Origin: Candidatus Hopanoidivoransaceae bacterium
Lineage (GTDB): Bacteria; Actinomycetota; Acidimicrobiia; Acidimicrobiales; Hopanoidiivorantaceae
Length of the DNA: 64,000 bases
NCBI GenBank assembly: GCA_965204495.1
Contig: OZ241989.1
Span: forward strand, 1,184,312 to 1,248,311
Direction of reading: 5' to 3'
Below, piece by piece: positions 8,818 through 55,409 of the stretch. How positions within the stretch are numbered: position 1 is the first letter of the stretch; each line of letters opens with the position of its first letter. A program made the translations under genes and the position numbers. Below the pieces are notes generated by a model. That model was not told the DNA's origin, ran no database searches, and saw nothing but the letters and a program-made list of their open reading frames with translations.

Positions 8818-8876
8818 GGGTTCTCCTGTCTGCATCGTTTCTGCTGGGATGTGCGCCGCGCACCGTTCTGCCTAAT

Positions 8877-8985
8877 CGCAAGTTTAACTCGGGAGTGTGA
8901 GAGCATCAGCACAGCCAGGCAGAACCGAACTCTCACCGCCCGAACTAGCGCAAGTTTAACTCGGGAGTGTGAGAGCATCAGCACA
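8877..8985. repeat. Perfect 37-nt direct repeat flanking a 35-nt unrelated segment (72-nt period)
   Basis: CGCAAGTTTAACTCGGGAGTGTGAGAGCATCAGCACA occurs at 8877-8913 and 8949-8985. The intervening 8914-8948 is GCCAGGCAGAACCGAACTCTCACCGCCCGAACTAG. Confidence 0.9.
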
Positions 8986-13080: not shown

Positions 13081-13911
13081 TCAATTTGTGGCTGTCTCTG
13101 AAATTTGTACTGCTGATGGCCTGCCCAGTGTGCCATCCCAGATGTAAGCGATGAAACGACCTGAAGCGGAAAGTGTGTATTGCGTGTTTTCTTCTCTAGT
13201 TATGGTGATATTTATTGGATTGCAGATAACCGCAATGGCTGAAAAGTCTCCATGCACTAGTACATTTTCAGGCAAGTGTTGGTTTAGAATGGGCAAACCG
13301 ACATAATCCAGCTTTTCTCGCAATTTTGCGGCAGTTTTCGGATGGCACATCAAAAGCATATTGCTTGAAGTTGTGTTGTCTGTTGCTAGGTGTTCAAGAT
13401 TCAGTACTCTTTCATAGGAAGCATATTGGTTCCAAAATTTTTCAGTCAGTTCTTTGTTGCATCTTCTGGCATACAGTGGCAGCAGTCTGTTGAAAACCGT
13501 GTGTTCCGTCATAGTAGCCATTGTGTGGTCAGAGAACGGAACGCTGTCGGGTCGTTTCCAAGGTGTGGCCTGTAACCCTATACTTAGTTCAGCGGCTACT
13601 GTTGCTTCTCTGAATTGAATATCTGGAATGGGCAGTCCATGATAAAGATGCTCGCGAGCATCAGATATGACGGGCTGGCGGAACCCTGGCTGCTTCAATT
13701 CGCCTTCTAAATCTTTGACGCAGAAAGCTGATACTCTCGCCCAGAGAGGAGCCTCTTTCCTCATTCGATGCCGCACGCGAGACAGTGTTTTTGGATTGCA
13801 ATCCAAAGACATGAATGTTTTTGTAGACGGCTGACTGTCTTTTGGAGCAAACAGGTGTCGTCCTGTCCACTCTAGGGTATAAGACACAAAGGGGATCTCC
13901 GTTGATGTCAT
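13081..13911 (-). CDS. Hypothetical protein (276 aa), translationally coupled partner of the upstream AAA+ ATPase
   Basis: Its ATG overlaps the ATPase stop (ATGA at 13908-13911), with AAGGAG just upstream. AT-richer than the flanks. I recognise no motif. Confidence 0.6.
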   Translation of the reverse strand: MTSTEIPFVSYTLEWTGRHLFAPKDSQPSTKTFMSLDCNPKTLSRVRHRMRKEAPLWARVSAFCVKDLEGELKQPGFRQPVISDAREHLYHGLPIPDIQFREATVAAELSIGLQATPWKRPDSVPFSDHTMATMTEHTVFNRLLPLYARRCNKELTEKFWNQYASYERVLNLEHLATDNTTSSNMLLMCHPKTAAKLREKLDYVGLPILNQHLPENVLVHGDFSAIAVICNPINITITREENTQYTLSASGRFIAYIWDGTLGRPSAVQISETATN

Positions 13912-36004: not shown

Positions 36005-37819
36005 ATGACATCAAATGCAGCAGATTCAATGTCTGAGCCGGCAGTGTCTGAGCCGGCTGTGCCGGATTCACTGGCAGTGTCGGACTCACTGTCAGTAGTG
36101 GCGTCGGAGACCGCAATGTCGCCGTCGGAAACCGCTGTCTCATTCGCAGACGAGCTCGACCCGCCCGAACTGGTGCCGGCCAGAATGCTCACGCAGTTTC
36201 TCTACTGCTCAAGGCTGTTCTATCTGGAGTGGGTGAATCAGCAATGGGACGACAATGCCCACACCGCTCAAGGCGAATATGTCCATCGGGCTGTGGACAG
36301 GATAGGCGGTGCCGCGCCGGCAGCAGACGATGACAATCCGTTTTTGGAGGCGAGGTCTCTGAAGCTGTCGTCTGAGAAGCTCGGTCTGGTGGCTGTGGTC
36401 GACTTGGTGGAAGGCAAAGGCGGCGAAGTTCATCCTGTGGATTACAAGAAAGCCAAACTGCCCGGCGATTTGGCATTGCAAACCTGGGAGTCGCACAGGG
36501 CGCAGCTTTGCGTGGCAGGGTTGCTGCTGCGAGAGGCAGGCTATGTGTGCACCAGCGGCAGCATCTACTATGCCGGCAGCAAGCGCAGGGTGGAGGTGCA
36601 TTTTGACGACGAGCTGGTAGACCAGACGATGTCGGCTCTGGAGGAACTGCGCGAAACGGCCACTCTGCCCGAAGCCCCGCCTCCGTTGGTGGACAGCCCC
36701 AAATGCCCCGACTGCTCGCTGGTGGGGATATGCCTGCCTGATGAAGTCAATCTTTTGGCAGAGATTTCCAAGCATCCGCCTCGCCGCTTGGTGCCTCGCG
36801 ATCCTCAGTCTCGCCCTGTTTATGTGGCTGAGCAGGGGGCGAGAGTGGGCAAGGCCAAAGGTCGGCTGCAAATCAAAAAAGACAGGGAAGTCATCCAAGA
36901 GGTGCGCTTGCTGGATGTCTCGCAGCTTTGTCTCTATGGCAATGTGCAGGTGTCTTCGCAGTGCGTTCGCGAGCTTTTGGGCAGGGATGTGCCGATCTGC
37001 TGGTTCAGCTTCGGCGGATGGTTCGCTGGCATGGCAACGGGTTTGCCTGCCAAGCATGTGGAGCTGCGGCGGCGACAGGTTGGCCGTTCTAGCGTGGGCA
37101 GAATGGACATCTCCAAAGCCATCGTGCGCTCCAAGATTTTGAACTCCCGCACTTTGCTGCGCAGAAATTTCAAAGGGGGCGATGAAGCTGTGCACCAGCG
37201 GACGCTGGCATCGCTCAAATATCTTGGGAAGGTGGCGGGCAGGGCTTCTACGGTCGCTGAGCTCATGGGCGTTGAGGGCGCGGCCGCACGGGATTATTTC
37301 CAAGCTTTCAACTCTATGCTCCGTGAAGAGCACGGCTTGCCCGGGCGTCCGTTTTCGTTTGAGGGGCGCAATCGCCGTCCGCCGTTGGATCCGATCAACT
37401 GTCTTTTGTCTTATTGCTATTCGCTGCTGACTAAGGAGTTGACGGTCGTGGCTCATGCTGTGGGGTTTGACCCTTACATCGGCTTTTTCCATAAGCCTCG
37501 GTTCGGGCGGCCTGCTCTGGCTTTGGATTTGGCCGAGGAGTTTCGCCCGTTGGTGGCGGATTCTGTTGTGATCACTTTGATCAACAATGACGAAATCAGA
37601 GCTTCGGATTTCGTGGTTCGCTCGGAAGGGGTTGCGCTCACCGATGCAGGCAAGAAGAAAGTCTTGGGGGCTTACGAGCGGCGTTTGGATGTGGAAATCA
37701 CCCATCCCGTGTTTGACTACAAGATCACATATCGCCGTGTTTTCGAGCTTCAAGCCCGTCTGCTGGCTGCCACGCTTTTGGACGAAGTGGCGGAATACAC
37801 GCCGTTTGCGACTCGGTGA
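36005..37819 (+). CDS. cas1: Cas4-Cas1 fusion protein (type I-G adaptation)
   Basis: N-terminal Cas4 features: LYCSRLFYLEW, DYKK, CPDCSLVGIC. The C-terminal ~330 aa is Cas1-like: VYVAEQGARVGKAKGRLQIKK...EGAAARDYF...NCLLSYCYSLL. Confidence 0.85.
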   Translation: MTSNAADSMSEPAVSEPAVPDSLAVSDSLSVVASETAMSPSETAVSFADELDPPELVPARMLTQFLYCSRLFYLEWVNQQWDDNAHTAQGEYVHRAVDRIGGAAPAADDDNPFLEARSLKLSSEKLGLVAVVDLVEGKGGEVHPVDYKKAKLPGDLALQTWESHRAQLCVAGLLLREAGYVCTSGSIYYAGSKRRVEVHFDDELVDQTMSALEELRETATLPEAPPPLVDSPKCPDCSLVGICLPDEVNLLAEISKHPPRRLVPRDPQSRPVYVAEQGARVGKAKGRLQIKKDREVIQEVRLLDVSQLCLYGNVQVSSQCVRELLGRDVPICWFSFGGWFAGMATGLPAKHVELRRRQVGRSSVGRMDISKAIVRSKILNSRTLLRRNFKGGDEAVHQRTLASLKYLGKVAGRASTVAELMGVEGAAARDYFQAFNSMLREEHGLPGRPFSFEGRNRRPPLDPINCLLSYCYSLLTKELTVVAHAVGFDPYIGFFHKPRFGRPALALDLAEEFRPLVADSVVITLINNDEIRASDFVVRSEGVALTDAGKKKVLGAYERRLDVEITHPVFDYKITYRRVFELQARLLAATLLDEVAEYTPFATR

Positions 37820-37942
37820 GACTGTCAATGAAACCCAGCTACTGCTTTAAAAGTCTGAACCGAGAACACGCGTCATTTTCAACTAGTGAAACTGTCAACT
37901 AGGTAAAACTGCCAACCCGATGAAATTCTCAATCCGCTAGCA
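37820..37942 (+). repeat. Five copies of a ~17-nt CTGTCAAC...GAAA-type unit between cas4/cas1 and the binding-protein gene
   Basis: GACTGTCAATGAAA (right after the cas4/1 stop), TTTTCAACTAGTGAAA, CTGTCAACTAGGTAAAA, CTGCCAACCCGATGAAA and TTCTCAATCCGCTAGCA. Confidence 0.6.
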
Positions 37943-37944
37943 TT

Positions 37945-39204
37945 ATGTTGATGAAATTCGTTATTTGTAAATCACTTGCTGCAGGCATAGCAATCCTGTC
38001 TGCTCTGTCGCTTTTTGCGGCTGCTTGCGGAGGCGATGATGGCAATGGCGGAGACGCGGATGCCGTGTCTGGCAGTGTCTTGAAGCTCGGCTACATCCTG
38101 CCTCAAACCGGCAGCTTGGCTTATTTGACAGATGCTATGGAAAACGGTGCGGCATTGGCAGTGGAGGAAGTCAATCGGGAGGGTATTCAAGAGATAGAGA
38201 TGGTAGCCGGCGACTCTGGCACCAATGCCGATGTAGCCAACAACACGGCCGACAGCCATATTGCCGAGGGCGTGCAGGGCATTGTCGGTGCGGGGGCATC
38301 GGCTGTTTCATTGGCAATCATCGACAAAATCACCGGCGTGGGGCTTCCGATGATCTCGCCGTCTAACACCTCTCCAGCTTTCACCGCCTATGACGACAGC
38401 GAGCTTTATTTCCGCACAATCGCTTCGGATGTGCTGCAAAGCAGGGTGATCGCCGACCTTATCGCCGAGGACGGCGCACGCCGAGTGGCCATCATGTATC
38501 GTGCCGATGCCTACGGAAAGGCTTTGGCTGACGCTTCCGAGCAAGGTCTTATCGCCAACGGCGTGGAATCCGCAGGCAAGTTCGCTTTGGATCCCGAAGG
38601 CAGCACCTTCACATCTGAGGTGCAGGAGGTTGCGGCATCGGGGGCCGATGCTGTGATTTTGATTGCGTTTCGCGAAGGCGGGCGGATCATCGCCGAGATG
38701 ATTGAGGCTGAAATCGGGCCAGGCGACATCGCTCTGTATGTGACGGCTGGTTTGGCTGTAGCCGATCTATGGGAGTTGGTCAATCCAGAAGATCGTTCGG
38801 CGGTGCAGGGAATACGAGGGACGCGCACCGGCGAGAGCGAGTCGGCTGAGCGGACTTTCAGAGATCGCTTTGCGGAATTCGCGCCTGGCGTGGATGATGC
38901 TTATGCTCCCGAAGCCTACGATGCGGTGGTGATCTATGCCTTGGCTGCTTTGGCGGCGGGAAGCAATCAGGCATCGGATTTTGCGTCTGAAATCAATGGC
39001 GTGACTCGTGGGGGCACAAAGTGCTCGCTGTATGCAGATTGCGCCGAGCTGGTGATGGCGGGTGAAGACATTGATTACGAAGGCGCGGCTGGTTCGCTGG
39101 ATTTCGTGGATGCCGGCGAGCCGAGCGTAGCGACTTTTGACATTTTGGAGTTTGATGCCGAGGGTGAAATCGTGGTGCTTTCGTCTAGGACGCTTCGGGG
39201 TTAG
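37945..39204 (+). CDS. ABC transporter substrate-binding lipoprotein (Liv/PBP1 type) located between cas4/cas1 and cas2
   Basis: Lipobox LFAAAC. LKLGYILPQTGSLAYL...GIVGAGASAVSLAI resembles branched-chain amino acid binding proteins. Confidence 0.75.
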   Translation: MLMKFVICKSLAAGIAILSALSLFAAACGGDDGNGGDADAVSGSVLKLGYILPQTGSLAYLTDAMENGAALAVEEVNREGIQEIEMVAGDSGTNADVANNTADSHIAEGVQGIVGAGASAVSLAIIDKITGVGLPMISPSNTSPAFTAYDDSELYFRTIASDVLQSRVIADLIAEDGARRVAIMYRADAYGKALADASEQGLIANGVESAGKFALDPEGSTFTSEVQEVAASGADAVILIAFREGGRIIAEMIEAEIGPGDIALYVTAGLAVADLWELVNPEDRSAVQGIRGTRTGESESAERTFRDRFAEFAPGVDDAYAPEAYDAVVIYALAALAAGSNQASDFASEINGVTRGGTKCSLYADCAELVMAGEDIDYEGAAGSLDFVDAGEPSVATFDILEFDAEGEIVVLSSRTLRG

Positions 39205-39226
39205 GATGCTTCGGGGTTAGGACGCG
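39186..39226 (+). repeat. 16-nt unit TAGGAYGCTTCGGGGT x2.5 spanning the stop codon of the binding-protein gene
   Basis: TAGGACGCTTCGGGGT (coding) TAGGATGCTTCGGGGT TAGGACGCG. The true stop TAG is at 39202-39204. Confidence 0.85.
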
Positions 39227-39389
39227 CGGCTGATTCCTGTGTTTCGTGTTTCTGTGGCATGGTCTTGGCAGCTGGTTGGGAAATTCAGTCTTGATGAACT
39301 TCACGCTTGTTCGCAGCACTCTTTCTGGTGTCTCGCCGGGTTTGAAAGTCTGATTGGCAAGCCTGTGCGGTTCTGAGTGAGGGAGATAT

Positions 39390-39686
39390 ATGAGTCGGAA
39401 TACCTATCTGGTCGCCTACGACATTTGCGGCGATGAAAAGCGTTTGCGGAAAATCCACCAATGCATGTGCGGGTATGGCTACTCTCTGCAATACTCGGTG
39501 TTCTTGTGCTCGCTGGATCAGGTTGAGCTGATCGACCTGAAGATGGATGTGAGCGAAATCATGAACCACAGAGACGACAGCGTAATGATCGTGTCACTAG
39601 GCCCCTCAGAAACGGCGGTGGAAAGTCATTTTGAATTCATGGGAGTCACCCCACCGAAATTTGACGAGGGAGCGGTCATCGTCTAG
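39390..39686 (+). CDS. cas2: Cas2
   Basis: 98 aa, YLVAYDICGDEKRLRKIHQCMCGYGYSLQYSVFLC. GAGGGA RBS. Immediately upstream of the leader and array. Confidence 0.85.
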   Translation: MSRNTYLVAYDICGDEKRLRKIHQCMCGYGYSLQYSVFLCSLDQVELIDLKMDVSEIMNHRDDSVMIVSLGPSETAVESHFEFMGVTPPKFDEGAVIV

Positions 39687-39968
39687 TTGGTTGCGCTGGT
39701 GGCGGTTGTCCGAGCATCTACAGCAGACAAAAAGATTCGCAGTCGATTCTGAAATAGCAAAGATATTTCTTGAGGGGGATGGGGGGTTCGAGGGGTTCCT
39801 GCGAGAGGTCGTGTGGCAACACCATCCCCAGCCACCTCTCGTGCCCTGCTACAATAACCCCAAAGAGGGGCATCCGAACCTTGGCAATCTATTCCCCAAA
39901 CAAAAAATCCCCACCCACTCGCAATCGGCCAATTCTCCCCAAGCCAATTGCGCCCAACAAAGTGAGTG
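39687..39968 (+). promoter_or_regulatory. CRISPR leader with candidate extended -10 TGCTACAAT at 39847-39855
   Basis: Non-coding stretch between cas2 and the first repeat. TGCTACAAT lies ~113 nt before repeat 1. The ORFs listed here are repeat or leader artefacts. Confidence 0.55.
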
Positions 39969-42363
39969 CTATCGGGGGGCAGTCCGCCCCCCCTTCATTG
40001 AAGCTGAGAAACTACATGATGAGCTTCGGGGAGGCTTATCTATCGGGGGGCAGTCCGCCCCCCCTTCATTGAAGCAGACCGCCTGATTACTTGCATCGTC
40101 ATTCTGAACCCCCTATCGGGGGGCAGTCCGCCCCCCCTTCATTGAAGCTCGCCGTGGTCTGTCGTCTCTACATGGACTGGCACTCTATCGGGGGGCAGTC
40201 CGCCCCCCCTTCATTGAAGCGCTTGACAATATGCGAACGCTGGAGGCGCACATCCTATCGGGGGGCAGTCCGCCCCCCCTTCATTGAAGCCACTCGGTTG
40301 AGAGATGAGACTGGTGCGGAGGCTTTCTATCGGGGGGCAGTCCGCCCCCCCTTCATTGAAGCTCAGCCATACAAACAGCCTAGCAGATAAGTTCCCTCTA
40401 TCGGGGGGCAGTCCGCCCCCCCTTCATTGAAGCCGCATGTCTTGGGCTGGTCGTTGATGACCCTGATTGCTATCGGGGGGCAGTCCGCCCCCCCTTCATT
40501 GAAGCAGGAACACGCCGAGCGCAGTAGCAGCGATGAAGCCCCTATCGGGGGGCAGTCCGCCCCCCCTTCATTGAAGCGAAGAATATGAGATGAGGTCTCT
40601 GCTGGATGGCTCCCTATCGGGGGGCAGTCCGCCCCCCCTTCATTGAAGCCGCTCTTGCGCTGTGCGCATCAGCGAGTTGAGCGTGCTATCGGGGGGCAGT
40701 CCGCCCCCCCTTCATTGAAGCAGCGGCATCTACACCACCAGCCAAGCCAAACCCTGCTATCGGGGGGCAGTCCGCCCCCCCTTCATTGAAGCTAGCTGGC
40801 AGCTATCAGCCTGCCCGCAACCTTCTGCTATCGGGGGGCAGTCCGCCCCCCCTTCATTGAAGCCTGGCAGAGCAAGGAGTTGCCAGACATGCATGCTGCT
40901 ATCGGGGGGCAGTCCGCCCCCCCTTCATTGAAGCGGCAGCGATGGCTGACGGCATCGCCTGCCTCGGCAGCTATCGGGGGGCAGTCCGCCCCCCCTTCAT
41001 TGAAGCTCGTGGATTGCTGATCCTATTGTTGCTAGCACGAGCTATCGGGGGGCAGTCCGCCCCCCCTTCATTGAAGCATTCAGTGTCGGCACAGAAAAAG
41101 TCGCAAGTTCGGCTATCGGGGGGCAGTCCGCCCCCCCTTCATTGAAGCTCTGGTGAAGAAGCCAGCGATACCACCATCTTCAACTATCGGGGGGCAGTCC
41201 GCCCCCCCTTCATTGAAGCCGCAGCGTCTTCTTCACTTGAGCGTCCGATAGGTATCTATCGGGGGGCAGTCCGCCCCCCCTTCATTGAAGCGGCTGGGGA
41301 CACCTCCACAGCGCAACAGCCTCTATCTATCGGGGGGCAGTCCGCCCCCCCTTCATTGAAGCATCAGGACACCTTTGCCATTGCCTCCATCGCCGTCTAT
41401 CGGGGGGCAGTCCGCCCCCCCTTCATTGAAGCAAGACCCTGAGAGTTTTGAATCTGAGAGGTTTTTACTATCGGGGGGCAGTCCGCCCCCCCTTCATTGA
41501 AGCTTATCAGGCAGGCTTCACGGGGCAGCTAGCCCCGTCTATCGGGGGGCAGTCCGCCCCCCCTTCATTGAAGCAGAGTGAAACAAGCTAGTTCCATTTT
41601 GGCACGAAAACTATCGGGGGGCAGTCCGCCCCCCCTTCATTGAAGCGGACTTGTTAAATGCGGATGATGAGCTTGTGGCGGCCTATCGGGGGGCAGTCCG
41701 CCCCCCCTTCATTGAAGCTGGCGGTCTCTCATCCCGCCGCAAGCCATAAACGAACTATCGGGGGGCAGTCCGCCCCCCCTTCATTGAAGTCTGCGCCTTT
41801 GTAGCCTGTGCCTGCCACGACAGACCTATCGGGGGGCAGTCCGCCCCCCCTTCATTGAAGTGATATTGTGTCATTCTCAGTCTCGTGTTTGTGGTGGCTA
41901 TCGGGGGGCAGTCCGCCCCCCCTTCATTGAAGTTCTACCAGTTCTGAGGTTATTTTGGTGACGGCTGACTATCGGGGGGCAGTCCGCCCCCCCTTCATTG
42001 AAGTTTGGCAATACTTTGAGGCTCTGCCCGCTCAGGTGGACTATCGGGGGGCAGTCCGCCCCCCCTTCATTGAAGTGCCTATCTGGGTAGCGTTCGTATG
42101 AGTCACCTGCGCCTATCGGGGGGCAGTCCGCCCCCCCTTCATTGAAGTGCAGTCCACGCGATCACTCCAATAGTGATTCCTATGCTATCGGGGGGCAGTC
42201 CGCCCCCCCTTCATTGAAGTGCTTCACACGCACTAGCAGCCTACGCCCGACTCACCTATCGGGGGGCAGTCCGCCCCCCCTTCATTGAAGTTATTCCATC
42301 TCCACCTGATACAAAAGCCCAGAGCGCCTATCGGGGGGCAGTCCGCCCCCCCTTCATTGAAGC
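39969..42363 (+). CRISPR. CRISPR array: 34 repeats of 36 nt and 33 spacers of 34-37 nt
   Basis: The repeat is CTATCGGGGGGCAGTCCGCCCCCCCTTCATTGAAGC. It contains a 7-bp stem GGGGGGC/GCCCCCC with a 5-nt loop, followed by an 11-nt tail ending ATTGAAGC. I located every repeat start by hand from 39969 to 42328. Repeats 26-33 end in T instead of C. Confidence 0.97.
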
Positions 42364-42391
42364 GGGGGGTAGGCGATTTTTGGCTGGTGTT

Positions 42392-44062
42392 TTAGAAATC
42401 TAGGTCTGGGGCGGGTTCTAGTTGTCCTGCTGACAGGGGGGTTTCTGCTTCGCTTTCTGTGAGGAACACCACGTCGCCGTCTATGAATTGTGGTCGTAGG
42501 GGGTCTTTTCTGTGATACAAATTGCAGGGCTCTAGCACTCTGTAATTTTTGCCCTTGGTCACACCGCCTCTCAAAATCATCTCTTGGACTGATTGAGCGT
42601 TCACAGCCAGCAAGAAAACAGCCAATGGCAATTCACCGATGCCTAGAGGGTGATGTTCGGGGCGAACCACAGGGCTGCGTGGTGTCACCATGTATGAGTT
42701 TCCCCTGAATTTTTCTTTCTCTTCTACAAGTTTTTTTAATCCCTTCAGATGATGATCCTTTGAGTTTCCTACTTCAAACGCCAAGGGATCCTCTGTCTCT
42801 CCGCCGAAAATGAAATCTACCTCATATGTTTCTCTTAGGCGCCAATATTCCAGAGTCATCCAACTGTTCTCTGCCAGCTCTTTTAATGCCGCTCCCGCCG
42901 CATTTTCCAGCACATGGCCTTTCTTTGGGAGATCTTCCAGCCCTGATGTCCCCATTCTCCTAACGGCCGAAGGAACGGCTGGGTCAAAGAAGCAGTATTT
43001 CTGGTTGCCAGCCTTCCGCATCGGTGCGTCGGAATAGGCGTCTAGTCGGAAGAGAATGTTCGCATTCTCCAAATGGGAGAGATATGTGCTTGTTGTTTTT
43101 CCCTGAGCTTCGCCCAGCTGTTTGCCAATCTTGGCAACTGTGGTCTGCTTGCCGAGCAGACCCGCGACAGAATGCATTACGGCCTCAAGAGTTTTCCGAT
43201 CTCTGACATCATGGAAGGCAACTATGTCTTTGTCAACCGCCCTGCCTACTACCTCTTTGAGGTATCCATGATCCCGTCTGACCGCTGCTCTGAGGCTCGG
43301 GTTATGCGTGGAATGGTCATATCCAGTGATGCACACGGGGTATCCGCCTGTGATGAGGTATCTGTCCAGAGCAGTCGCTACCTGCTCGGGAACGGGCGAG
43401 ACCTGCGGGATTGATTGAAGCCGTGCTCGCAAAGATGGATATCCTGTTCTGCACCATTTTGGAATGATGCTGGCATCGCCGAAAACAAATTCGCACCATT
43501 CCATGAAATTGCAAGCCATCAAGCGATATTCTGCCCAGCGGTCTGGGCCGCTTTCTGGTTTGCGCTTGTCGTTATTGGCAAGGATCATCCCAGAACTGGA
43601 AGACGCTAAAACTCTGATGGGTCTGTTTTGAGCGAGAAGATTTTTTAGCCACAGGTCCCAGTCGTCGCTTGCTCCTATCTCGTCCAAGAACAGAAAAATC
43701 GGCTCATCGATGCTGGCATCGGGGCACAGCAGCAACAAGGCATCTGCTATCGCCCCTAGATTTTCCATCTGAAGCTCCGGGTGATCCAGTTCCACGAAAA
43801 AGATGCGCTCTCTGGGTATTCCCTTGTCTAGCAAGCTGTCAATAGACTGCCAAAGCAGCGTGGTTTTGCCAGACCTGCGGGGGCCCAGCACAAGATGGTA
43901 GCATCGCGGGTCGTCTCGGATGAGGGTGTCGGGCAGAACTCGCATCATGTGCCTGTGCTTGGGCAGGGATTTCTCCGTCAGCTCGGACGAGTCTGTTTTC
44001 CACCCGTTCTGATCCTCGAGTATTTCTTGGAAGCGGGGTATGTCTATGTATTGAAATGCCAT
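42392..44062 (-). CDS. AAA+ ATPase of the COG1373 type (AAA_14 plus DUF4143-like), second copy
   Basis: Walker A GPRRSGKTT and Walker B FLFLDEIGASDDW. The track start is 44098; ATG 44062 (MAFQYIDI) has GGAGG 7 nt upstream. AT-richer than the array and the cas4/1 region. Confidence 0.75.
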   Translation of the reverse strand: MAFQYIDIPRFQEILEDQNGWKTDSSELTEKSLPKHRHMMRVLPDTLIRDDPRCYHLVLGPRRSGKTTLLWQSIDSLLDKGIPRERIFFVELDHPELQMENLGAIADALLLLCPDASIDEPIFLFLDEIGASDDWDLWLKNLLAQNRPIRVLASSSSGMILANNDKRKPESGPDRWAEYRLMACNFMEWCEFVFGDASIIPKWCRTGYPSLRARLQSIPQVSPVPEQVATALDRYLITGGYPVCITGYDHSTHNPSLRAAVRRDHGYLKEVVGRAVDKDIVAFHDVRDRKTLEAVMHSVAGLLGKQTTVAKIGKQLGEAQGKTTSTYLSHLENANILFRLDAYSDAPMRKAGNQKYCFFDPAVPSAVRRMGTSGLEDLPKKGHVLENAAGAALKELAENSWMTLEYWRLRETYEVDFIFGGETEDPLAFEVGNSKDHHLKGLKKLVEEKEKFRGNSYMVTPRSPVVRPEHHPLGIGELPLAVFLLAVNAQSVQEMILRGGVTKGKNYRVLEPCNLYHRKDPLRPQFIDGDVVFLTESEAETPLSAGQLEPAPDLDF

Positions 44063-44411
44063 CGTTCTACCTCCGTTATCTGAATTATGTATCTGCATTA
44101 TACATGTTTTTCAGTTATATGACAACCTATTTTGTTGATGATTTTGCCATATATTGGAGATTGATAGCATTTTCTAGGATTTTAAGGCTTATAGAACTGG
44201 AAATCTTGGAATATCTAGAATATAGATATCCAAATTCCAAGAAGCTAGATTTGTCCATCACAGACGGAATTAGCTTGCCTAATTCGCTTCTGCTATGTTT
44301 GTGCCGGCGCAGGCGAGTGAAGTGGTCGGCGTGTCAGTGATTGTGCCGTATGTGACCTGCCGAGAGCACGGCATCGATTATCTCTGCGGTTAGTGCTTTC
44401 ACCGCGCCGGC

Positions 44412-44447
44412 TTTCGGGGGGCGGTCCGCCTACCTTAATTTGAAGCT
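44412..44447 (+). repeat. Degenerate CRISPR repeat (28/36 identical to the array repeat)
   Basis: CTTTCGGGGGGCGGTCCGCCTACCTTAATTTGAAGC versus CTATCGGGGGGCAGTCCGCCCCCCCTTCATTGAAGC. A weaker repeat-like stretch begins 72 nt later (~44484-44523). Confidence 0.75.
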
Positions 44448-44495
44448 GGTTTGGCTGCTACTACCGCAGGGCTACTGGATCTGTTTCTGGGGTAG

Positions 44496-44729
44496 TCAAC
44501 TGCTCCCTTCCCCAATTTGGCCTTCCACTTGGTCATTGAGCAGATCCATTTTGGATTTGACTTCGTGGTTCCAGCAAGAGTAGCGCCTCATTCTGAGCGT
44601 GATTGTCTCTTCGGAGCGATCAGGGTCTGGTTTAACGCAATCAATTTCCGACGTGACAAACATGATGCTCAAGATGACGATGAGTAGGAAAAGGATGGTG
44701 GATGAAATGCTTACAACGAGTTTGAACAT
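44496..44729 (-). CDS. Small membrane protein (77 aa), hypothetical
   Basis: N-terminal hydrophobic helix MFKLVVSISSTILFLLIVILSIMFV, with AAGAAAGG upstream. Its 3' end overlaps repeat-like sequence, so it is uncertain. Confidence 0.35.
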   Translation of the reverse strand: MFKLVVSISSTILFLLIVILSIMFVTSEIDCVKPDPDRSEETITLRMRRYSCWNHEVKSKMDLLNDQVEGQIGEGSS

Positions 44730-44863
44730 GATAGTGCCTTTCTTGTGATGGTTGGATTAGGGGATCTTGGTGTTTGTCGAAGTGTTGTCGCACCCGCTGC
44801 GGTCAATCCGCTAATTGCGGTGCGACTTCTTTGCCCATGAACAATGGCTGCCAACATGTCGGG

Positions 44864-44991
44864 GCGGTGATGGTGATGTGTCGCAACCCACCTTGTTTCT
44901 CGAGCGGGCCGCAGGTGCAGTCGGCTACTGGTGCTGCGCGGTGATGGCGATGTGTCGCTACCTACCCTTCGGGGGGGGGGGCGATTTGAAG
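44864..44991 (+). repeat. ~32-nt direct repeat pair (period 74) ending in a G11 tract plus GATTTGAAGT (CRISPR-repeat-like 3' end)
   Basis: GCGGTGATGGTGATGTGTCGCAACCCACCTT at 44864 and GCGGTGATGGCGATGTGTCGCTACCTACCCTT at 44938, followed by C-G11-CGATTTGAAGT. CTTAAATTGAAGC occurs at ~45058-45070. Confidence 0.6.
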
Positions 44992-45090
44992 TGACAAGGC
45001 GGGATTAGTTTGGATTAATTCATTCTAGTTAATTTTGGGAGGGTTCGTCAAGCTTGTCTTAAATTGAAGCCAGATGGTTTGCGCTGAGAA

Positions 45091-45198
45091 GTTGCTATAT
45101 TCTATCAAAATCTGGTGTGGGGCAAATTACAAGTCATCGCCGTTGTCGGCCGAAATAAGATGTTGCTATATTCTATCAAAATTCGGTATGGCGCATAT
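45091..45198 (+). repeat. AT-rich 37-nt direct repeat pair with 71-nt period (two-repeat mini-array-like)
   Basis: GTTGCTATATTCTATCAAAATCTGGTGTGGGGCAAAT at 45091 and GTTGCTATATTCTATCAAAATTCGGTATGGCGCATAT at 45162. They are 32/37 identical and the first 21 nt are perfect. Confidence 0.7.
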
Positions 45199-45222
45199 AA
45201 GAGCTCCTTTGTGCCCCAGCTC

Positions 45223-46659
45223 TTAGTGGGCTGTTTCTACGGCATTGGAGATGCCAGTTCGCGGGAACGAAGGGGACCCCGTTTCGAGGGCTCTTTTTCT
45301 TCCTTTTGCTCTAGGTGTTTTAAGCTGTTTCTTGAAAAAAATGTCTGCTAGGTCGCAGTATATGGTTTCTATACTTGAATACATCTCTATCAATTCTCCA
45401 AATTCTTCATCAATTTTCGCGAGTTCTTCCATTTTTGAAATTAGAGACTTAATGCTAGAGCAGATGCTTTGAATAATTTGAAAACACTCTTCCATAAGTT
45501 CTTCATCAGTTGTTGATTGAACTAGGAACACCATGCTGTTATTTCGCATGTTGAGTTTCACAAAGCTGGGCTCATCCAAATCTTCATTTTCAAAGAGATT
45601 GATGTCTTGACAAATATCTGAGAAAGCCAAAGTTTCTATAATAAAATCTACGATGCCACTTAATATTTCAGCAGATTGACAAATAAATGTTCCAGTATTT
45701 TCTAAAGTATCCGACTCATCGAGAAATAAATCGGATCCATTGCCAACATAATTTTCTGTAAACCAAGTTGGGAAGTTGTCTAATCTAGTTTGCAAATTTG
45801 CAATTTGCAAGCAAAAATTGTCATATTCATCTACGCATTCTTCCAATGACTCAAGAACTTGATCAAATTCGCCTTGTGTCGGCCTAATATCGCTCAGACG
45901 AAAGTTTGCTTGATTCCACGAAAATTCAATAGAGAATATTCCCCCAAAATCTTCTATGTTCCAGATTTCAGAGCAGCGTTCCAAAGCTTCTTGAGCATAA
46001 TTCAAGAATTGCGATGAATCAGAAGCGAAGCACATTATTTGTCTTATATCAGACCAAAGAGAACTGAAGTACGCTACTTCTGCCTCACTAAGTTGTGTTT
46101 GCAAAATAGTGAAGTTGTCGCAGACTTTACTAAATTCTGGTGAGCACTCAGATACCACAATATTAGTTTCTATACCATCTGCACAAGTTTTTGTTGTTTC
46201 AATATACTCCAGTAGTGCCTTGTTGACCTCAGATGATAAATCAACAGGCAGAGTTTCTAACTCATCAGACAACTGGGTGATTTGCTGTTGGGTCAGCCAT
46301 TCGGGAGCAGGCGAATTGCGGGCCTCTGGCGAGAGCAGAGATAGCAAAAATTTGATGAGCTGGGTGTCTGGATCATCTGGTGCTGATTCATCTCCTGATA
46401 ATTGGGATGCCCTTTCTGCGAGGATATCTTCTGCTGTAGGTGTCTCGCTAGGAAGTGTCGGAGTGTTAGAAGTCGAAGTTGCTGGGGACGTGGTGGTGCT
46501 TGAAACGGCAGAGGTGCTTGGTTGCGTGGTAGGCGAAGAAGGAGCAGATTGGTTTTCGGTTGCTACAGGCTTGGAGGCATCCGCGCATCCAGCCAAGAGC
46601 AGACAGACTGCCAGCACACCCAAGACAGAACGACTCAGCGATGGAAGGGTGGAAGGCAC
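45223..46659 (-). CDS. Acidic Cys-rich lipoprotein (478 aa), function unknown
   Basis: Lipobox LLLAGC and a Ser/Thr/Pro linker, then repeated E.C-x7-10-C helical-looking segments (ECSPEFSKVC, ERCSEIW, EECVDEYDNFC, EECFQIIQSIC). Markedly AT-rich. Confidence 0.65.
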   Translation of the reverse strand: MPSTLPSLSRSVLGVLAVCLLLAGCADASKPVATENQSAPSSPTTQPSTSAVSSTTTSPATSTSNTPTLPSETPTAEDILAERASQLSGDESAPDDPDTQLIKFLLSLLSPEARNSPAPEWLTQQQITQLSDELETLPVDLSSEVNKALLEYIETTKTCADGIETNIVVSECSPEFSKVCDNFTILQTQLSEAEVAYFSSLWSDIRQIMCFASDSSQFLNYAQEALERCSEIWNIEDFGGIFSIEFSWNQANFRLSDIRPTQGEFDQVLESLEECVDEYDNFCLQIANLQTRLDNFPTWFTENYVGNGSDLFLDESDTLENTGTFICQSAEILSGIVDFIIETLAFSDICQDINLFENEDLDEPSFVKLNMRNNSMVFLVQSTTDEELMEECFQIIQSICSSIKSLISKMEELAKIDEEFGELIEMYSSIETIYCDLADIFFKKQLKTPRAKGRKRALETGSPSFPRTGISNAVETAH

Positions 46660-46789
46660 GAATTGTCAGGTTAGTCGGAGCGCGCCATCTTTGAGCGGGA
46701 CTACTTTCTGAGCACAAAATGAAGGGGCGACACATCTGTGCAGCCCTTCATGAGCATTTGCGCAGATTTGATGGTCTGCGGGGGTGGTG

Positions 46790-47212
46790 TCAGGCTGCCA
46801 CTTTTACTTCCACTTGGCGGGGTGCTTCGGGCACTACCAGCGGGACGGTGACAGTCAGCACGCCGAATTTGCTTTCGGCTGAGGGTTGGGCTGAGTCGGC
46901 GTCTTCGGGGAGACGGATGCGGAACTCTGCGTTGTCGCTGGTTCCCCATGCTCCTACCGGGACGAAATTCTTGGGCTCTTCGTCTGCGGAGTCGTTTTCG
47001 TGCTTCTCGTCTGTGATGGCCACGAGAAGTTGGTGATCAGCGATGCTGACTGCGATCCTTGCTGGATCAACGCCTGGGAGGGCGAAACGATACTCCAGCC
47101 TGTCTGGGAAGCGGGTGGCCGATGGCCGGGGCAGCTCCCTTCGGGCTGTGAGAACCCCATTGGATGGGGACTTGAAGAAGATGTCGAAAAGGTCATCCAT
47201 TTGCCTGAGCAT
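46790..47212 (-). CDS. Hsp20/alpha-crystallin family small heat-shock protein
   Basis: The track ORF extends to 47287. ATG 47212 (MLRQMDDLFD) has AAAGGA ~9 nt upstream. ACD-like C-terminus AEFRIRLPEDAD...KFGVLTVTVP. Confidence 0.8.
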   Translation of the reverse strand: MLRQMDDLFDIFFKSPSNGVLTARRELPRPSATRFPDRLEYRFALPGVDPARIAVSIADHQLLVAITDEKHENDSADEEPKNFVPVGAWGTSDNAEFRIRLPEDADSAQPSAESKFGVLTVTVPLVVPEAPRQVEVKVAA

Positions 47213-47293
47213 TGTTCTATCCTTTCTGTTCGGTGCTTTGCTCTTAAAGCTGTACAACGCAAACAGGGAGGGATTTATTCCAAGCATTTGGAA

Positions 47294-47310
47294 GCGGAAT
47301 TCAATTCCGC
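47294..47310. promoter_or_regulatory. Perfect 17-nt palindrome GCGGAATTCAATTCCGC upstream of hsp20 (candidate operator)
   Basis: 8-bp arms around a single central base. The loop is too short for an RNA hairpin, so a dimeric DNA-binding site is more likely. It lies between the cas8u-like stop and the hsp20 start. Confidence 0.4.
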
Positions 47311-47362
47311 GAAAATGTGATGACAGTCCTGGATCACAGGGCTTCAGACAAAAAAGATAGCA

Positions 47363-48294
47363 CTAATTGCTATTGGCTGTCCGCCAGATTATTTGGGGTG
47401 GACTGAAGGTGCCATAGCCACCTTGATCTGAGCGCAGTATCTGCGATTGCAGAATTCGGGATATTCCCCATGATGGATAGAAGTGGCTACGATTTTCTGG
47501 TGTTAAGCTGGTGGCTTGTGCGAGGAGGGCAATCACGGTTCCAAATCCTGCGGGGCGAATCCAAAGAGGCCAAGTATATTTTCCCTGTTTCCAACCACCT
47601 GAGCAACCAAGTGTTAAGGTTCTCTTGCCGTCTTGCCTTGAAAATACTGGATGTCTGCTAAACCCTAAAATTGCTAGAGCTTCGGGACCAGGATTTGTGT
47701 ATTTGTCGGTAGTGGATGGGTTGGAGGCTGATAAGGCGTAAACACGGTCGTCAACTATATCCCACATTAATGATTCTTTTTTGCTTTGATATGGCCAAGG
47801 GCCAATAAGACCTTCGGTTATATCGTCTTCAGTTGCGGAAGTAAGAATTTCTTGTGCCATGCTAAGAAATTTTTGTTGGCCTGCTGTGAAGTAGAGATCG
47901 TTTGGTTTGGCTATATTATTGTTGTCATAGCTTCCTTCGGCTATCAATGCTGTGGCAAATTCGCTACCAATTTGTCCAACTGACGACATGAGGTATTCTC
48001 TAACCGTTTCATCAGAGAACTTGGCTTTTTCTTTTTCTGCTTTTGTCCCAAGCTTTGGAGCCAGAGCAGGGCTTTTTGCCCATTTGGGGAAGACTGCCAT
48101 TGCTTGATCTACTATTTTTTCCACTGGGTAAGCCTCGCTGACGATGGCATGGGGGATGACATCGTTTGACCACCAGAGCTTGGGTTGGTCGGGCTCGTCG
48201 GCGAAGAGGACTTGGACACCTAGGGCGGCAAAGAAGCCTAGGGGGTTGGTGCCGTCTAGTCCGGTCAGGTGAATGCCTTCGTATGCTTGGGTCA

Positions 48295-48295
<1 letters not shown>
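47363..48295 (-). CDS. Short Cas8u-family (Csb3/Csx17-like) putative large subunit
   Basis: The ATG at 48295 overlaps the cas3 TGA. The N-terminal LTGLDGTNPLGFFAALGVQVLFADE resembles the PLG..LKALGV..L motif I recall at Csx17/Cas8u N-termini. Last gene of the effector operon. Confidence 0.5.
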
Positions 48296-52777
<4,482 letters not shown>

Positions 52778-52780
52778 GGC

Positions 52781-54013
52781 TTACTCCGCTTCTGGCTTTT
52801 CGGTTTTGGCTGCTTTTCGGCTTTTCGCCAATAGCTCAATCAGCTTCGGGGAGGGTTCTAGCCGTATCTCGGATGTCTCCCAGCCGATGCCAGCCTTTTC
52901 CGCCTCCTCAGCAGCCCGCTTCAGAATGTCGGATGCGACCGATCTGTTGATGTCCACAACAGTGGGGGCTGAGCCATCCCGTGCTACAAGTTCCAAAGTT
53001 TGGGTTTCAGTCGGAATCAGAAGACATCTGGAGCGAAGGTCGTAGTCGTGCTCATATAGATAAGCGGCGGCTGCTACGCCGAGTGCTGCGATGGCGGTCT
53101 GAGCCGCCGCTTCTTTGGCGCGGTCGCGTCCTCCGAAACGAAGCTTCCTCAAGGCTGCTAGCGAAATCACAGTAGTTTGGACTGCCCCTGAGATGGTCAC
53201 GCCGCCCGACAGAGAATCTATAGAGGGTGCGATGTTGCCGTGGTTGATTTCTGAGGGTCTGCCTATGACTTTGGGCTTGCCTTTTTCTTTGGCAGCTTCG
53301 TCTTCGTTGACGGTCCAGACTTGGGCAGGGTCTGCATGCTCGTAGATGAGATCTTCGGCTGACAATTTTTCAATCGCGAGAGGATCCAGCCGGCTGCCTA
53401 CTTTCTTGCCGACCTGCACATCCAAGCCGATGATCTCTGAGACATAGGCTCGCTGGAATTTCGACCCCAACCCGCCCTTCGGCCCTGTGCTGTCCCAAAC
53501 TCCGAACAGCAGGGCTGTGGGCGAATACCGATATAGGGCGGTGGCGTCTCGTGGGGTGGCGTTGGTTATCTGCTGTCCGACATCAGACAGGCGGAACAGA
53601 GTGCCGTCCAGCAGGCTGTCGCGGAAGATGGCATCGGCTATCCTGTGCGGAGCTTCAAGGGCTGTGAGCTTGCCGATTTCGCTCAAGTCTTCCTCGTCGC
53701 TCTTGGCATCTGAAAAATCCACATATGGAACGGGAAACGCTAGATCGCCGTCCAGCCAGCCTTCCAGCAGGGCTTCTTCGGCTCGGTTGGCCTGAGACGC
53801 TACCGAGTCCAACAGCACGGTTTCCACTTCTTTGTCGTTGATTTGGCGCGTCTCCACAGCGTATTTGTGGTCGGCTCGGCCGTCAACGGCGTATGAGGGC
53901 GGAAACACCTTGTCTTCGGTTCCGCCAGCAGGTGCCAGCGACAGACGAGACCGCAAAGCTACGGCACCTCCCGCTGTGGCTTCTGAAAGCTGTTCAAAAG
54001 TGAGTTCGGTCAT
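52781..54013 (-). CDS. csb1: Csb1 (Cas7u, type I-G)
   Basis: The track start 54073 is TTG. ATG 54013 (MTELTFEQL) has AAGGAG 7 nt upstream. LAPAGGTEDKVFPPSYA...VLLDSVASQANRAEEAL matches my memory of Csb1. Confidence 0.8.
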   Translation of the reverse strand: MTELTFEQLSEATAGGAVALRSRLSLAPAGGTEDKVFPPSYAVDGRADHKYAVETRQINDKEVETVLLDSVASQANRAEEALLEGWLDGDLAFPVPYVDFSDAKSDEEDLSEIGKLTALEAPHRIADAIFRDSLLDGTLFRLSDVGQQITNATPRDATALYRYSPTALLFGVWDSTGPKGGLGSKFQRAYVSEIIGLDVQVGKKVGSRLDPLAIEKLSAEDLIYEHADPAQVWTVNEDEAAKEKGKPKVIGRPSEINHGNIAPSIDSLSGGVTISGAVQTTVISLAALRKLRFGGRDRAKEAAAQTAIAALGVAAAAYLYEHDYDLRSRCLLIPTETQTLELVARDGSAPTVVDINRSVASDILKRAAEEAEKAGIGWETSEIRLEPSPKLIELLAKSRKAAKTEKPEAE

Positions 54014-54084
54014 GATTTTCTCCTTGATGGCTTGTCTGTGTTTTGGGTGTTCTGCTGTTGGGTAGGGTGTCAAATCGCAATTGC

Positions 54085-54190
54085 CAATACACTAGCAGGG
54101 GGGTGTGATGAGCATCGCTGGATCGGCTTGCTAGGGGCTGAATTTCATCAACGACAAGACTAGCGGGGGGGTGTGATGGGTATCGTGGCG
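54085..54190 (+). repeat. Pair of ~36-nt G-run direct repeats (period ~68-70) upstream of csb1
   Basis: CAATACACTAGCAGGGGGGTGTGATGAGCATCGCTGG and CAAGACTAGCGGGGGGGTGTGATGGGTATCGTGGCG. Each reads on the minus strand as CATCACACCCC..GCTAGT, a -10-like element. Confidence 0.7.
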
Positions 54191-54270
54191 ACAGGCAATC
54201 CCGTGTCCCAAGCTCACCCCGAAAAAAGCGCAAGGCTGTTTTGCAGCACCTGCGTGTTATATCTCTGGGT

Positions 54271-54738
54271 ATGGCAACCACAGCAGATTCACAGAAGTTC
54301 GCCTCCTTGCGGGAGCACGAGGAGCGGCGGGTAAACGAGACGGGTGTTTTGCGGGCGGCTAATGACCGCATGATTGCCTATTTGATGAACATCAGCATCG
54401 CCATGTGCTTGGGCTATGCCTTCAGGGGCGATCTCTCTCTGCTCTCGGGGCTGGAGATCGCTGCGCTGCTGGTGGTGCTGCTGGCTGGGGCGGCGCCAAG
54501 TGCTGTTTTCTTCTTCACGGAGAGGCCGAGGGAGGATGTGGGCTTGACAAAGAGGCACTTGATGATGGAGCAGCATAAGATTGAGATAGCAAGGTATTTT
54601 GCGGTGGGTGCACAGCGAGAGAATGCTGAAAATAATTTGAAGCTGGCTAGACGCTGGAGGAGAATATGTCTTTTGCTATGGGGCGCAGCAATGATTGCGG
54701 CTATACTGCTAGTAGCCGTCAATGCAGCAGTCAACTAG
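54271..54738 (+). CDS. Small three-TM membrane protein, hypothetical
   Basis: The track ORF starts at 54241; ATG 54271 (MATTADSQKF) is equally possible. Three hydrophobic segments separated by a charged helix. Confidence 0.5.
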   Translation: MATTADSQKFASLREHEERRVNETGVLRAANDRMIAYLMNISIAMCLGYAFRGDLSLLSGLEIAALLVVLLAGAAPSAVFFFTERPREDVGLTKRHLMMEQHKIEIARYFAVGAQRENAENNLKLARRWRRICLLLWGAAMIAAILLVAVNAAVN

Positions 54739-54753
54739 GAAGGAGCGAACATC

Positions 54754-54954
54754 ATGGGCAGATTCATCGACAGAATCTTGATCAGAATCATGGACAGAAC
54801 CGCTCCTGAAGAGCCTGAGGAGGAGCAAGACATAGAAGCTCTGCGTGAGCGCAAGCTCGAAATTCTGAAATCCGCAGGATTGGACACCTCTTATGCCACT
54901 GACGATATCCTTGACGCTTTTGATATCATCAAGCGGCCATTCCATCTCAGGTAG
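54754..54954 (+). CDS. Small acidic protein (66 aa), hypothetical
   Basis: ATG with GGAAGGAG upstream, 15 nt after the preceding gene. No recognisable motif. Confidence 0.4.
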   Translation: MGRFIDRILIRIMDRTAPEEPEEEQDIEALRERKLEILKSAGLDTSYATDDILDAFDIIKRPFHLR

Positions 54955-55009
54955 ACCTCACGGTACATAGTAGGGTGTGCCTGTGATACCGCAGAATGCC
55001 CATCACGCC

Positions 55010-55036
55010 ATGCTCATCACACCCCTTGGCTACAAT
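55010..55036 (+). promoter_or_regulatory. arsC promoter: ATGCTCATCACACCCC core plus TACAAT -10, leaderless start
   Basis: TACAAT at 55031-55036 ends 7 nt before ATG 55044. The 16-nt core is the exact reverse complement of 54100-54115 upstream of csb1. Confidence 0.5.
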
Positions 55037-55043
55037 CTGGGTT

Positions 55044-55409
55044 ATGACTGACAAGACCGACATCACCGTTTATCACAATCCGAAGTGCGGGACTTCTCGC
55101 AGCGTGCTGGCTTTGCTGGAAAACCACGGCGTGGAGCATGAGACCGTCCTGTATATGGACGACAAGCTCAGCCATGACAACTTTGAGAGCATCCTCGCCA
55201 TGCTCACCGACCCGCCTACCATGCTCATTCGCCGTGACCCCCGGTTCAAGGAGCTGGGCATCTCAGAAGGCGAGGTGCAGACACGGGCGCAGGTGCTGCG
55301 AATGCTCGGCAAGCATCCTGAGCTCATGCAGCGGCCGATCGTCGTGACGGGCGGCAAGGCGTGCATCTCCCGCCCGGCAGAAAAAGCTGCCGAGTTTCTG
55401 GGGATCTAG
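55044..55409 (+). CDS. arsC: Arsenate reductase (glutaredoxin-coupled ArsC family)
   Basis: ITVYHNPKCGTSRSVLALLE...LMQRPIV is the typical ArsC/Spx-fold pattern. The start is chosen at MTDKTD. Confidence 0.8.
   Translation: MTDKTDITVYHNPKCGTSRSVLALLENHGVEHETVLYMDDKLSHDNFESILAMLTDPPTMLIRRDPRFKELGISEGEVQTRAQVLRMLGKHPELMQRPIVVTGGKACISRPAEKAAEFLGI

Follow-up and report, generated by a model that had tools for sequence, protein, structure and literature searches.

Background

PafBC recognises promoters with a canonical -10 hexamer and no -35; it binds a -26 element from -28 to -23 and reads out the triplet GTC, through guanine contacts that are almost invariant (PMC8635444). At SARP sites the 3′ repeat lies at 8 bp from the -10, where it overlaps the -35 or takes its place, and the mode of action resembles sigma adaptation; the direct repeats are spaced 11 or 22 bp (PMC10936776). 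Regulators of the WYL type are described in PMC10693628 as controlling defence systems. Here we describe a 16-bp inverted repeat, and the putative promoter module to which it belongs, between the type I-G CRISPR-Cas interference operon and an arsC-family gene in 64,000 nucleotides (nt) of a Candidatus Hopanoidivoransaceae bacterium (assembly GCA_965204495.1, contig OZ241989.1, positions 1,184,312 to 1,248,311 of the forward strand). This 64-kb stretch is called the window throughout, and positions refer to it.

To our knowledge, almost nothing has been reported on the transcription or regulation of type I-G CRISPR-Cas operons, and nothing for Acidimicrobiia. In the reading that we favour, with a probability of roughly 0.58, the arms of the repeat are opposed copies of one promoter module, one facing cas and the other arsC, with a lineage-specific cassette between them and a trans-acting factor as the putative reader. 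The locus thus offers a precise, conserved and testable cis-element, RTCACAC at 8 nt from an extended -10, as a handle towards the regulator, and it brings to light a two-gene cassette, lineage-specific and amplifying in tandem, that sits between cas and arsC.

The inverted repeat belongs to a longer module

The 16-mer GGGGTGTGATGAGCAT lies at 54100-54115 (reading ATGCTCATCACACCCC on the minus strand) and its exact reverse complement at 55010-55025 on the plus strand, precisely where the original prediction had placed them. The diverged third copy that it had mentioned was found at 54168-54183 on the minus strand, with 2 mismatches. Motif and repeat counts refer to the window unless stated otherwise. 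When up to 3 mismatches were allowed, nothing in the 64 kb matched the 16-mer beyond the two arms and this third copy (0.66 expected). Perfect 16-bp inverted repeats within 2 kb occurred twice, compared with a mean of 0.125 in 40 first-order Markov simulations; the other one is an 18-bp palindrome, TTTGGATTGCAATCCAAA, at 13790-13807. A looser form of the motif, which the original prediction had singled out for a search, gave 3 matches as CACACCCC-N0-4-GCTA, against 0.04 expected. Two features had been overlooked, a degenerate fourth copy beside the arsC module and a 27-nt direct repeat formed by the two cas-side copies, 68 bp apart.

The arms of the repeat extend into a longer module, (G)ATGCYC-RTCACAC-N8-TAnnnT, which has no -35 box and in most cases a TGn-extended -10. 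Its copies and relatives in the window are the following.

54089-54116, minus strand: P1, the cas-facing copy, GATGCTC-ATCACAC-CCCCCTGC-TAGTGT, which holds the left arm (54100-54115); profile E = 1.6e-9
54157-54184, minus strand: P2, the upstream tandem copy, GATACCC-ATCACAC-CCCCCCGC-TAGTCT, 68 bp from P1; E = 6.9e-8
55010-55036, plus strand: the arsC-facing module, ATGCTC-ATCACAC-CCCTTGGC-TACAAT, which holds the right arm (55010-55025); E = 4.3e-7
54996-55009, plus strand: the degenerate fourth copy, ATGCCCATCACGCC, which adjoins the arsC module; profile E = 0.52
8877-8985, minus strand: a related module ahead of the enoyl-CoA hydratase gene (8032-8835), where GTGCTGATGCTCTCACACTCCCGAGTTAAACTTGCG occurs as two identical copies of 36/37 nt

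Both -10-like hexamers are as they had been described. On the cas side, TAGTGT (54089-54094, minus strand) forms a TGC-extended -10 about 75 nt upstream of the csb1 ATG (54013), and on the arsC side TACAAT (55031-55036) ends 7 nt ahead of the arsC ATG (55044). P2 marks the left edge of the cassette. The pattern TCACAC-N8-TAnnnT had 5 matches, all intergenic and gene-facing, against 0.195 expected, and a profile built from 18 distinct module copies, the hydratase copy among them, found only five sites at E < 0.001. The same profile gave nothing significant in 77 kb of two outgroup loci (L007 and L010).

A scan for the sigma-70 consensus returned no -35/-10 pair at the module sites, and Rfam had no match in the region or the window. 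Scans of IMG/VR with the 16-mer and with ATCACACCCC-NN-TGCTA-NNN-T yielded 9 and 6 single matches, respectively, in unrelated contexts and at chance level. A metagenome scan with GATGCTC-N0-1-TCACAC-N8-TAnnnT yielded at least 120 unrelated single matches, and its one double match (L063) is a large unrelated palindrome. Palindromes of the CRP, Rex or LexA type were considered by eye and discarded, as only a TGTGA half-site is conserved.

Conservation across related loci

The in-group comprised nine distinct loci of uncultured Acidimicrobiales-like bacteria, namely the window and L001, L004, L005, L011, L012, L013, L029 and L030, with identities of 83-99% for Cas7 and 89-98% for ArsC. In all nine the cassette lies directly upstream of csb1 and divergent from it. 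P1 is also present in 9/9 loci and is the best-conserved block upstream of csb1; in the alignment of this region TCACACCCC and TGCTA are the only long invariant blocks, and the flanks of L001 and L011 can barely be aligned. TGC precedes the -10 hexamer in every P1 copy (9/9), making it an extended -10.

The distance from RTCACAC to TAnnnT is exactly 8 nt in 9/9 P1, 4/4 arsC-facing and 6/7 P2 copies. The exception is the P2 of L005, which has two extra C in its poly-C tract and is otherwise near-identical to that of the window. Columns T15, C16, A17, A19, C20, C22 and C23 are invariant across the module copies, and the RTC triplet reads ATC in 11 of the 17 distinct cas and arsC copies, GTC in the other 6 and CTC at the hydratase copy. 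The two arms are identical at 16/16 positions in the window and L005, with 1 difference between them in L004 and 3 in L001.

P2 is present in the window, L004, L005, L012, L013, L029 and L030; in L011 a deletion has removed the P2 core, and L001 lacks P2. Its poly-C tract is C7 in the window (54161-54174) and C9 in L005 (9898-9913), despite Cas7 proteins that are 99% identical; such a change, which puts the hexamer 10 nt and not 8 nt from the element, could switch P2 on and off. Among the copies left behind between tandem cassettes, one of three still has RTCACAC-N8-TAnnnT and the hexamer is lost in the other two, and this decay of the -10 fits selection on the gene-facing copies only. In L005, L012 and L030 the cassette units end on the right with a relic of the ATGCCCATCACGCC type, also where a gene other than arsC comes next.

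Four loci have the arsC-facing copy (the window, L001-3, L004 and L005). In L011, L013 and L029 about 35-60 bp with the motif and the -10 are gone, and arsC begins 22-23 nt past the second cassette gene. This is most simply seen as a secondary deletion, because L001, the most divergent in-group member (ArsC 89%), still has the copy. L001 has retained the two outward copies, which enclose 2.3 kb of genes that differ in part, and L012 and L030 have a giant gene as right-hand neighbour in place of arsC.

In the outgroups L007 and L010 (Cas7 67-69% and ArsC 62-69% identical), csb1 and arsC are directly divergent across 200-260 bp, and neither cassette nor motif was found in their 77 kb. The cassette is thus a clade-specific occupant of an old cas-arsC junction, since these distant loci have the plain divergent arrangement without it. 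L008 and L009 have a type I-G operon of canonical order upstream of arsC, on the same strand.

A related module at the enoyl-CoA hydratase gene

A search for RTCACAC-N8-TAnnnT with one mismatch recovered two identical sites on the minus strand, 8881-8901 and 8953-8973. They are the two copies of the hydratase module, GATGCTC-TCACAC-TCCCGAGT-TAAACT, 45 kb from the cas promoter. With P1 they have GATGCTC(+/-A)TCACAC, the 8-nt spacing and TAnnnT in common, and they differ from it in the N8 and the hexamer. GATGCTC-N0-1-TCACAC had 3 matches against 0.01 expected. The presence of this copy at an unrelated gene favours a trans-acting factor that reads an element at about -28 to -21.

Proposed reading and alternatives

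The proposed mechanism starts from a conserved, non-palindromic element at about -33 to -21, in the usual place of a -35 and at a fixed 8 nt from the -10. P1 would drive the type I-G interference operon leftward, and the other outward copy would drive the arsC-family gene rightward as a leaderless message. A trans-acting protein would read the element together with the housekeeping sigma factor, and the geometry matches that of actinobacterial activators of the "sigma-adaptation" kind, among them PafBC on its -26 element. We consider this the best reading because of the fixed spacing, the missing -35, the non-palindromic form and the unrelated genes served; a repressor occluding the same position is equally compatible. 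The 0.9 kb between the arms is a tandemly amplifying two-gene cassette with a putative leaderless promoter of its own, and P2 and the further internal copies would be by-products of local duplication.

Several points weigh against this reading. All promoter assignments are based on sequence, from which we also infer active promoters, leaderless starts and both that a factor exists and what kind it is. Duplication has clearly spread P1, P2, the arsC copy and the internal copies, which sit within 1-2 kb of one another, and much of their similarity could come from common descent, not shared recognition. Only one further locus, the hydratase gene, supports a regulon, and it does so with a 1-nt indel and a different N8. 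PafBC itself is an unlikely reader, because ATC stands in 11/17 copies in place of its almost invariant guanine contacts. Direct repeats of the SARP type, at 11 or 22 bp, were not found at the module, and no candidate regulator gene was seen beside the locus. The original prediction had proposed outward-facing promoters and, among its explanations, a duplicated module or a shared operator. This agrees with the fixed 8-nt spacing, the conservation and the hydratase copy; obligatory co-regulation of cas and arsC is unsupported, as L011, L013 and L029 lack the arsC copy altogether and such co-regulation is evidently dispensable.

The clustering of the copies also suits an account without a dedicated factor, in which the cas promoter was copied locally, in tandem and inverted, as the cassette region formed, and the conserved block is simply what the host RNA polymerase needs at that promoter. 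All cas and arsC copies are close neighbours, copies accompany every tandem cassette duplication (L004 9993, L005 10857, L030 4993), the arsC region resembles a fused and inverted P2 plus P1 (ATGCCCATCACGCC, then ATGCTCATCACACCCC), and the arsC copy is dispensable. However, the spacer between -35 and -10 is normally unconstrained, yet TCACACCCC is invariant amid diverging flanks, and local duplication does not explain a related module with another N8 and -10 at an unrelated gene 45 kb away, so we hold this account to be rather doubtful. We consider it quite unlikely that the arms are recombination sites, terminal inverted repeats by which the two-gene segment would transpose or undergo site-specific inversion and which carry outward promoters like those of some insertion sequence (IS) elements; the original prediction had listed this as ends of an inserted or invertible segment. 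The outgroups L007 and L010 indeed have no cassette, each unit in L005, L012 and L030 has a minus-strand copy to its left and a relic on the plus strand to its right, and a second cassette copy stands between the RDD and ABC genes in L011 and L029. The arms also end in GGGG like Tn3-family ends, with 11/16 identity to the Tn3 inverted repeat, but the likeness stops after 16 nt. No target-site duplication was seen, as the outer flanks (...CACTAGCAGG on the left, TTGGCTACAA on the right) are inverted (GCTA) and not direct, and no transposase or recombinase gene lies within 10 kb in any of the nine loci. Moreover, the cassette has one orientation, that of arsC, in 9/9 loci, its second-site copies are repeat-less at either end, the right arm is gone in L011, L013 and L029 while the cassette stays, and in L001 both arms enclose different gene content.

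A further alternative is autoregulation by Cascade in the manner of CreR/CreA. The motif would then be a protospacer-like target, and the upstream copy would belong to a degenerate mini-array, RNA from which would direct the type I-G effector to the promoter of its own operon and to arsC. P1 and P2 are spaced by the 68-71 bp of a CRISPR unit, the duplicated block begins with CTAGCGGGGGG, which is 10/11 identical to the start of the CRISPR repeat, CTATCGGGGGG, and a solitary degenerate repeat at 44411-44446 shows that such relics occur in the cas locus. Past these 11 nt, however, the block is unlike the repeat and has neither a hairpin nor a ATTGAAGC handle, and local alignment of the repeat to 54014-54270 and 54955-55043 recovered the 11-nt start alone. 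None of the 33 array spacers matches the promoter region beyond 10-11 nt, a comparison of the spacers with this region and the window found no self-target, and the hydratase copy and the strict distance to the -10 point to RNA polymerase and not to Cascade. We therefore regard this alternative as very improbable.

The cassette and neighbouring genes

The cassette, the genes on either side and the CRISPR array are listed below.

54271-54738, plus strand: cassette gene 1, 155 aa, with three predicted transmembrane helices and a hypervariable loop at residues ~90-125
54754-54954, plus strand: cassette gene 2, 66 aa, acidic and helical; gene 1 always precedes it in related loci
54241-54270, plus strand: the putative promoter of the cassette itself, a TTGCAGCACCTGCG palindrome and a TGT-extended -10 TATATC (54258-54263), 7 nt before the ATG
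55044-55409, plus strand: ArsC-family gene with a glutaredoxin-type CGTSRS motif; its score is below the NCBIfam arsC cut-off
47363-54013, minus strand: type I-G interference operon, with csb1/cas7g 52781-54013, csb2 51131-52777, cas3g 48295-51144 and cas8g/Cas3-extension 47363-48355
36005-37819 and 39392-39688, plus strand: adaptation genes cas4/cas1 and cas2, respectively
39968-42363, plus strand: CRISPR array of 34 repeats (36 nt) and 33 spacers of 33-36 nt

The two genes that had been predicted between the arms are real, with homologues at 74-95% identity; gene 1 has 37 homologue clusters in this range, all of this lineage. Neither protein matched a family in Pfam, NCBIfam, PADLOC or PHROGs, and their AlphaFold2 models are of low confidence (predicted local distance difference test, pLDDT, of 57 for gene 1 and 58 for gene 2). 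Gene calls of 183-195 aa, in which an N-terminal extension of gene 1 would make the motif coding, were rejected, as the extension is unconserved as protein and out of frame in the window. Conservation of the cassette promoter at the DNA level appears in over-called gene models as a pseudo-peptide, "LQHLRVISLG".

The cassette and arsC hexamers both end 7 nt before the ATG, and so both mRNAs would be leaderless. Leaderless mRNAs and weak -35 boxes are usual in Actinomycetota. The closest named relatives of a thiolase encoded in the window are proteins from Acidimicrobiales MAGs, at 74-77% identity, which makes the host probably an uncultured representative of the Acidimicrobiia. Just upstream of the extended -10 of the cassette, at 54242-54254, the palindrome GCAGCACCTGC is kept in every cassette copy, including the repeat-less second-site copies, with one base different in L011 (CTGT). 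It is a candidate operator of the cassette itself.

The window has one cassette, L004 two, L005 one and a 5′-truncated one, and L030 as many as four, remnants included. L011 and L029 have a further copy at a second site, flanked by the RDD and ABC genes. The copies are at 9290-10780 in L004, 10000-11200 in L005, 4170-6450 in L030, 6001-6783 in L011 and 5001-5703 in L029. Two regions are hypervariable, the loop in the membrane protein and the C-terminal half in the small one, which recalls cognate pairs of the toxin/immunity type. Rightward, arsC is followed by genes for an RDD protein and an oligopeptide ABC transporter.

The CRISPR-Cas locus (36005-54013) is split and unusually ordered, with csb1 first in the minus-strand operon. 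It runs from cas4/1, cas2 and the array through an AAA_14/DUF4143 ATPase gene (PADLOC PDC-S01), a 478-aa open reading frame (ORF) and HSP20 to cas8g-cas3g-csb2-csb1. The solitary degenerate repeat, CTTTCGGGGGGCGGTCCGCCTACCTTAATTTGAAGC (44411-44446, plus strand), lies 2 kb past the array, beyond the ATPase gene, and a second collapsed remnant (…TTCGGGGGGGGGGCGATTTGAAGT) is found at about 44960-44992. Between the two remnants there is a 77-aa ORF with a hydrophobic N-terminus (44496-44729, minus strand).

The giant gene, which encodes a surface protein, has its ATG at 7895 on the minus strand and extends past the start of the window. The original prediction had noted upstream of it an ACAC-C9-GTGCTATGC sequence similar to the repeat; this exists (7924-7941, minus strand), and it is a weak relative only and not the same module, with a profile E of 6.8, a spacing of 12 nt, not 8, and no GATGCTC. 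At 7845-7940 on the minus strand, upstream of the giant gene and in its signal-peptide codons, two C9 tracts lie in a 31-nt direct repeat, 65 bp apart, which suggests phase variation by slipped-strand mispairing.

Duplicated blocks of repeat length around unrelated inserts

The two-copy direct repeats that the window has outside the array concentrate at periods of 65-74 bp. Four clean units, one of them in L030, have exactly the geometry of the array, a block of repeat length doubled around an unrelated insert of 35-36 nt, and their period of 72 equals that of an array unit. They are given here together with the segment between P2 and P1.

8877-8985, minus strand: clean unit, 37 identical nt duplicated with a period of 72 around an unrelated 35/36-nt insert; hydratase promoter
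9363-9470, plus strand: clean unit within the ABC ATPase gene 9018-9953, a 36-nt block (33/36 identical) doubled at a period of 72
9471-9578, plus strand: clean unit within the ABC ATPase gene 9018-9953, a 36-nt block (31/36 identical) doubled at a period of 72
L030 3674-3782: clean unit, 37 identical nt duplicated around a 35-nt insert, period 72; at the P1 motif region of the cas promoter
54118-54156, minus strand: segment between P2 and P1, unrelated to its flanks and conserved in L004 and L005

Tandem duplication does not explain the clean units, because the inserts are not repeated. Their form suggests off-target integration of spacers, with a role of the integrase that is inferred from geometry only. 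The two units of the ABC ATPase gene are adjacent and in frame and add 48 aa, so that residues 131-187 face residues 113-121 of PDB chain 1ji0_A. Both also occur in a second strain (P0239), whose copy of the gene is frameshifted. The 72-bp unit of L030 is strain-specific and independent of the older P1/P2 pair. Two more two-copy repeats, 44860-44966 (period 74) and 45084-45198 (period 71), occupy the non-coding DNA that separates the 478-aa ORF from the ATPase gene and may be either array units in decay or additional scars of integration.

P1 and P2 may be an older event of the same kind, because of their period of 68-71, the unrelated segment between them and the CTAGCGGGGGG start that resembles CTATCGGGGGG. 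The period is 68 in the window, 68-70 in L004, L005 and L013, 71 in L030 without the newer 72-bp unit, 82 in L012 and 91 in L029, and 27-29 of the 36 nt of the duplicated block can still be recognised. If the pair arose by off-target integration, 54118-54156 would be the inserted "spacer", of 31-32 nt after the 36-nt duplicated blocks are trimmed. The likeness to the start of the repeat is seen at P1/P2 only, and the clean units do not resemble it. The inserts of the clean units and the P1-P2 segment had no match in phage and plasmid collections, and none of the four clean-unit cores was found in IMG/VR.

Three of the five events duplicate a motif-bearing promoter, at varying offsets. Our tentative proposal, to which we give somewhat less than an even chance, is that P2 was made by off-target spacer insertion through the host Cas4/1-Cas2, that motif promoters are recurrent sites of it (the ancestral P1/P2 pair, the newer unit at the cas promoter of L030 and the hydratase promoter of the window) and that the ABC ATPase gained its two 24-codon units likewise. 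If this is true, CRISPR adaptation visibly reshapes non-CRISPR DNA in nature, where it duplicates promoters, that of its own effector operon included, and lengthens proteins.

Comparison with known systems

The consensus that Gamulin reportedly gave in 2004 for RecA-NDp is tTGTCRgtg-8nt-TAnnnT. Such PafBC hybrid promoters share with the module a non-palindromic element at about -28 to -21, a canonical TAnnnT and the lack of a -35, and in both an 8-mer is followed by 8 nt and then TAnnnT. When the -10 is set at -12 to -7, in place of a mapped start, the RTC of the module falls at -27 to -25, where PafBC reads GTC. The module differs in that it has YRTCACAC and not TGTCRGTG, with the key G replaced by A in 11 of the 17 distinct copies, and its genes (cas, arsC, enoyl-CoA hydratase) are, unlike PafBC targets, not genes of DNA repair. 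The canonical PafBC motif, TGTCRGTG-N8-TAnnnT, had only chance-level matches in the window. With SARP sites of the AfsR type the module shares the 8-bp distance to the -10; unlike them, its only repeat is CATCAC at arsC, with a spacing of 14 bp.

The ends of IS elements and miniature inverted-repeat transposable elements (MITEs), and switches of the fimS/hin type, resemble the locus in their perfect short inverted repeats around ~1 kb with promoter-like sequences pointing outward. They differ from it in their transposase or recombinase, target duplication or alternative orientation, and here one arm is dispensable. CreR/CreTA resembles the locus in its position directly upstream of effector genes, the CRISPR-like period and the 11-nt repeat-like start, but neither the hairpin and handle of a psi-repeat nor complementarity between guide and target was found here.

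For the duplicated blocks, the nearest described process is off-target ("neo-CRISPR") spacer integration, which is reported for the type I-E system of E. coli with over-expressed Cas1-Cas2 (Nivala, Shipman and Church 2018, as cited in PMC7054753; bioRxiv 10.1101/148544). As in that process, adaptation genes are present here (cas4/cas1 and cas2). The units described here differ from the E. coli events in that they are fixed and natural and occur in a type I-G host. If they are off-target integrations, they would provide rare evidence from nature of a process that has so far been demonstrated chiefly in engineered E. coli.

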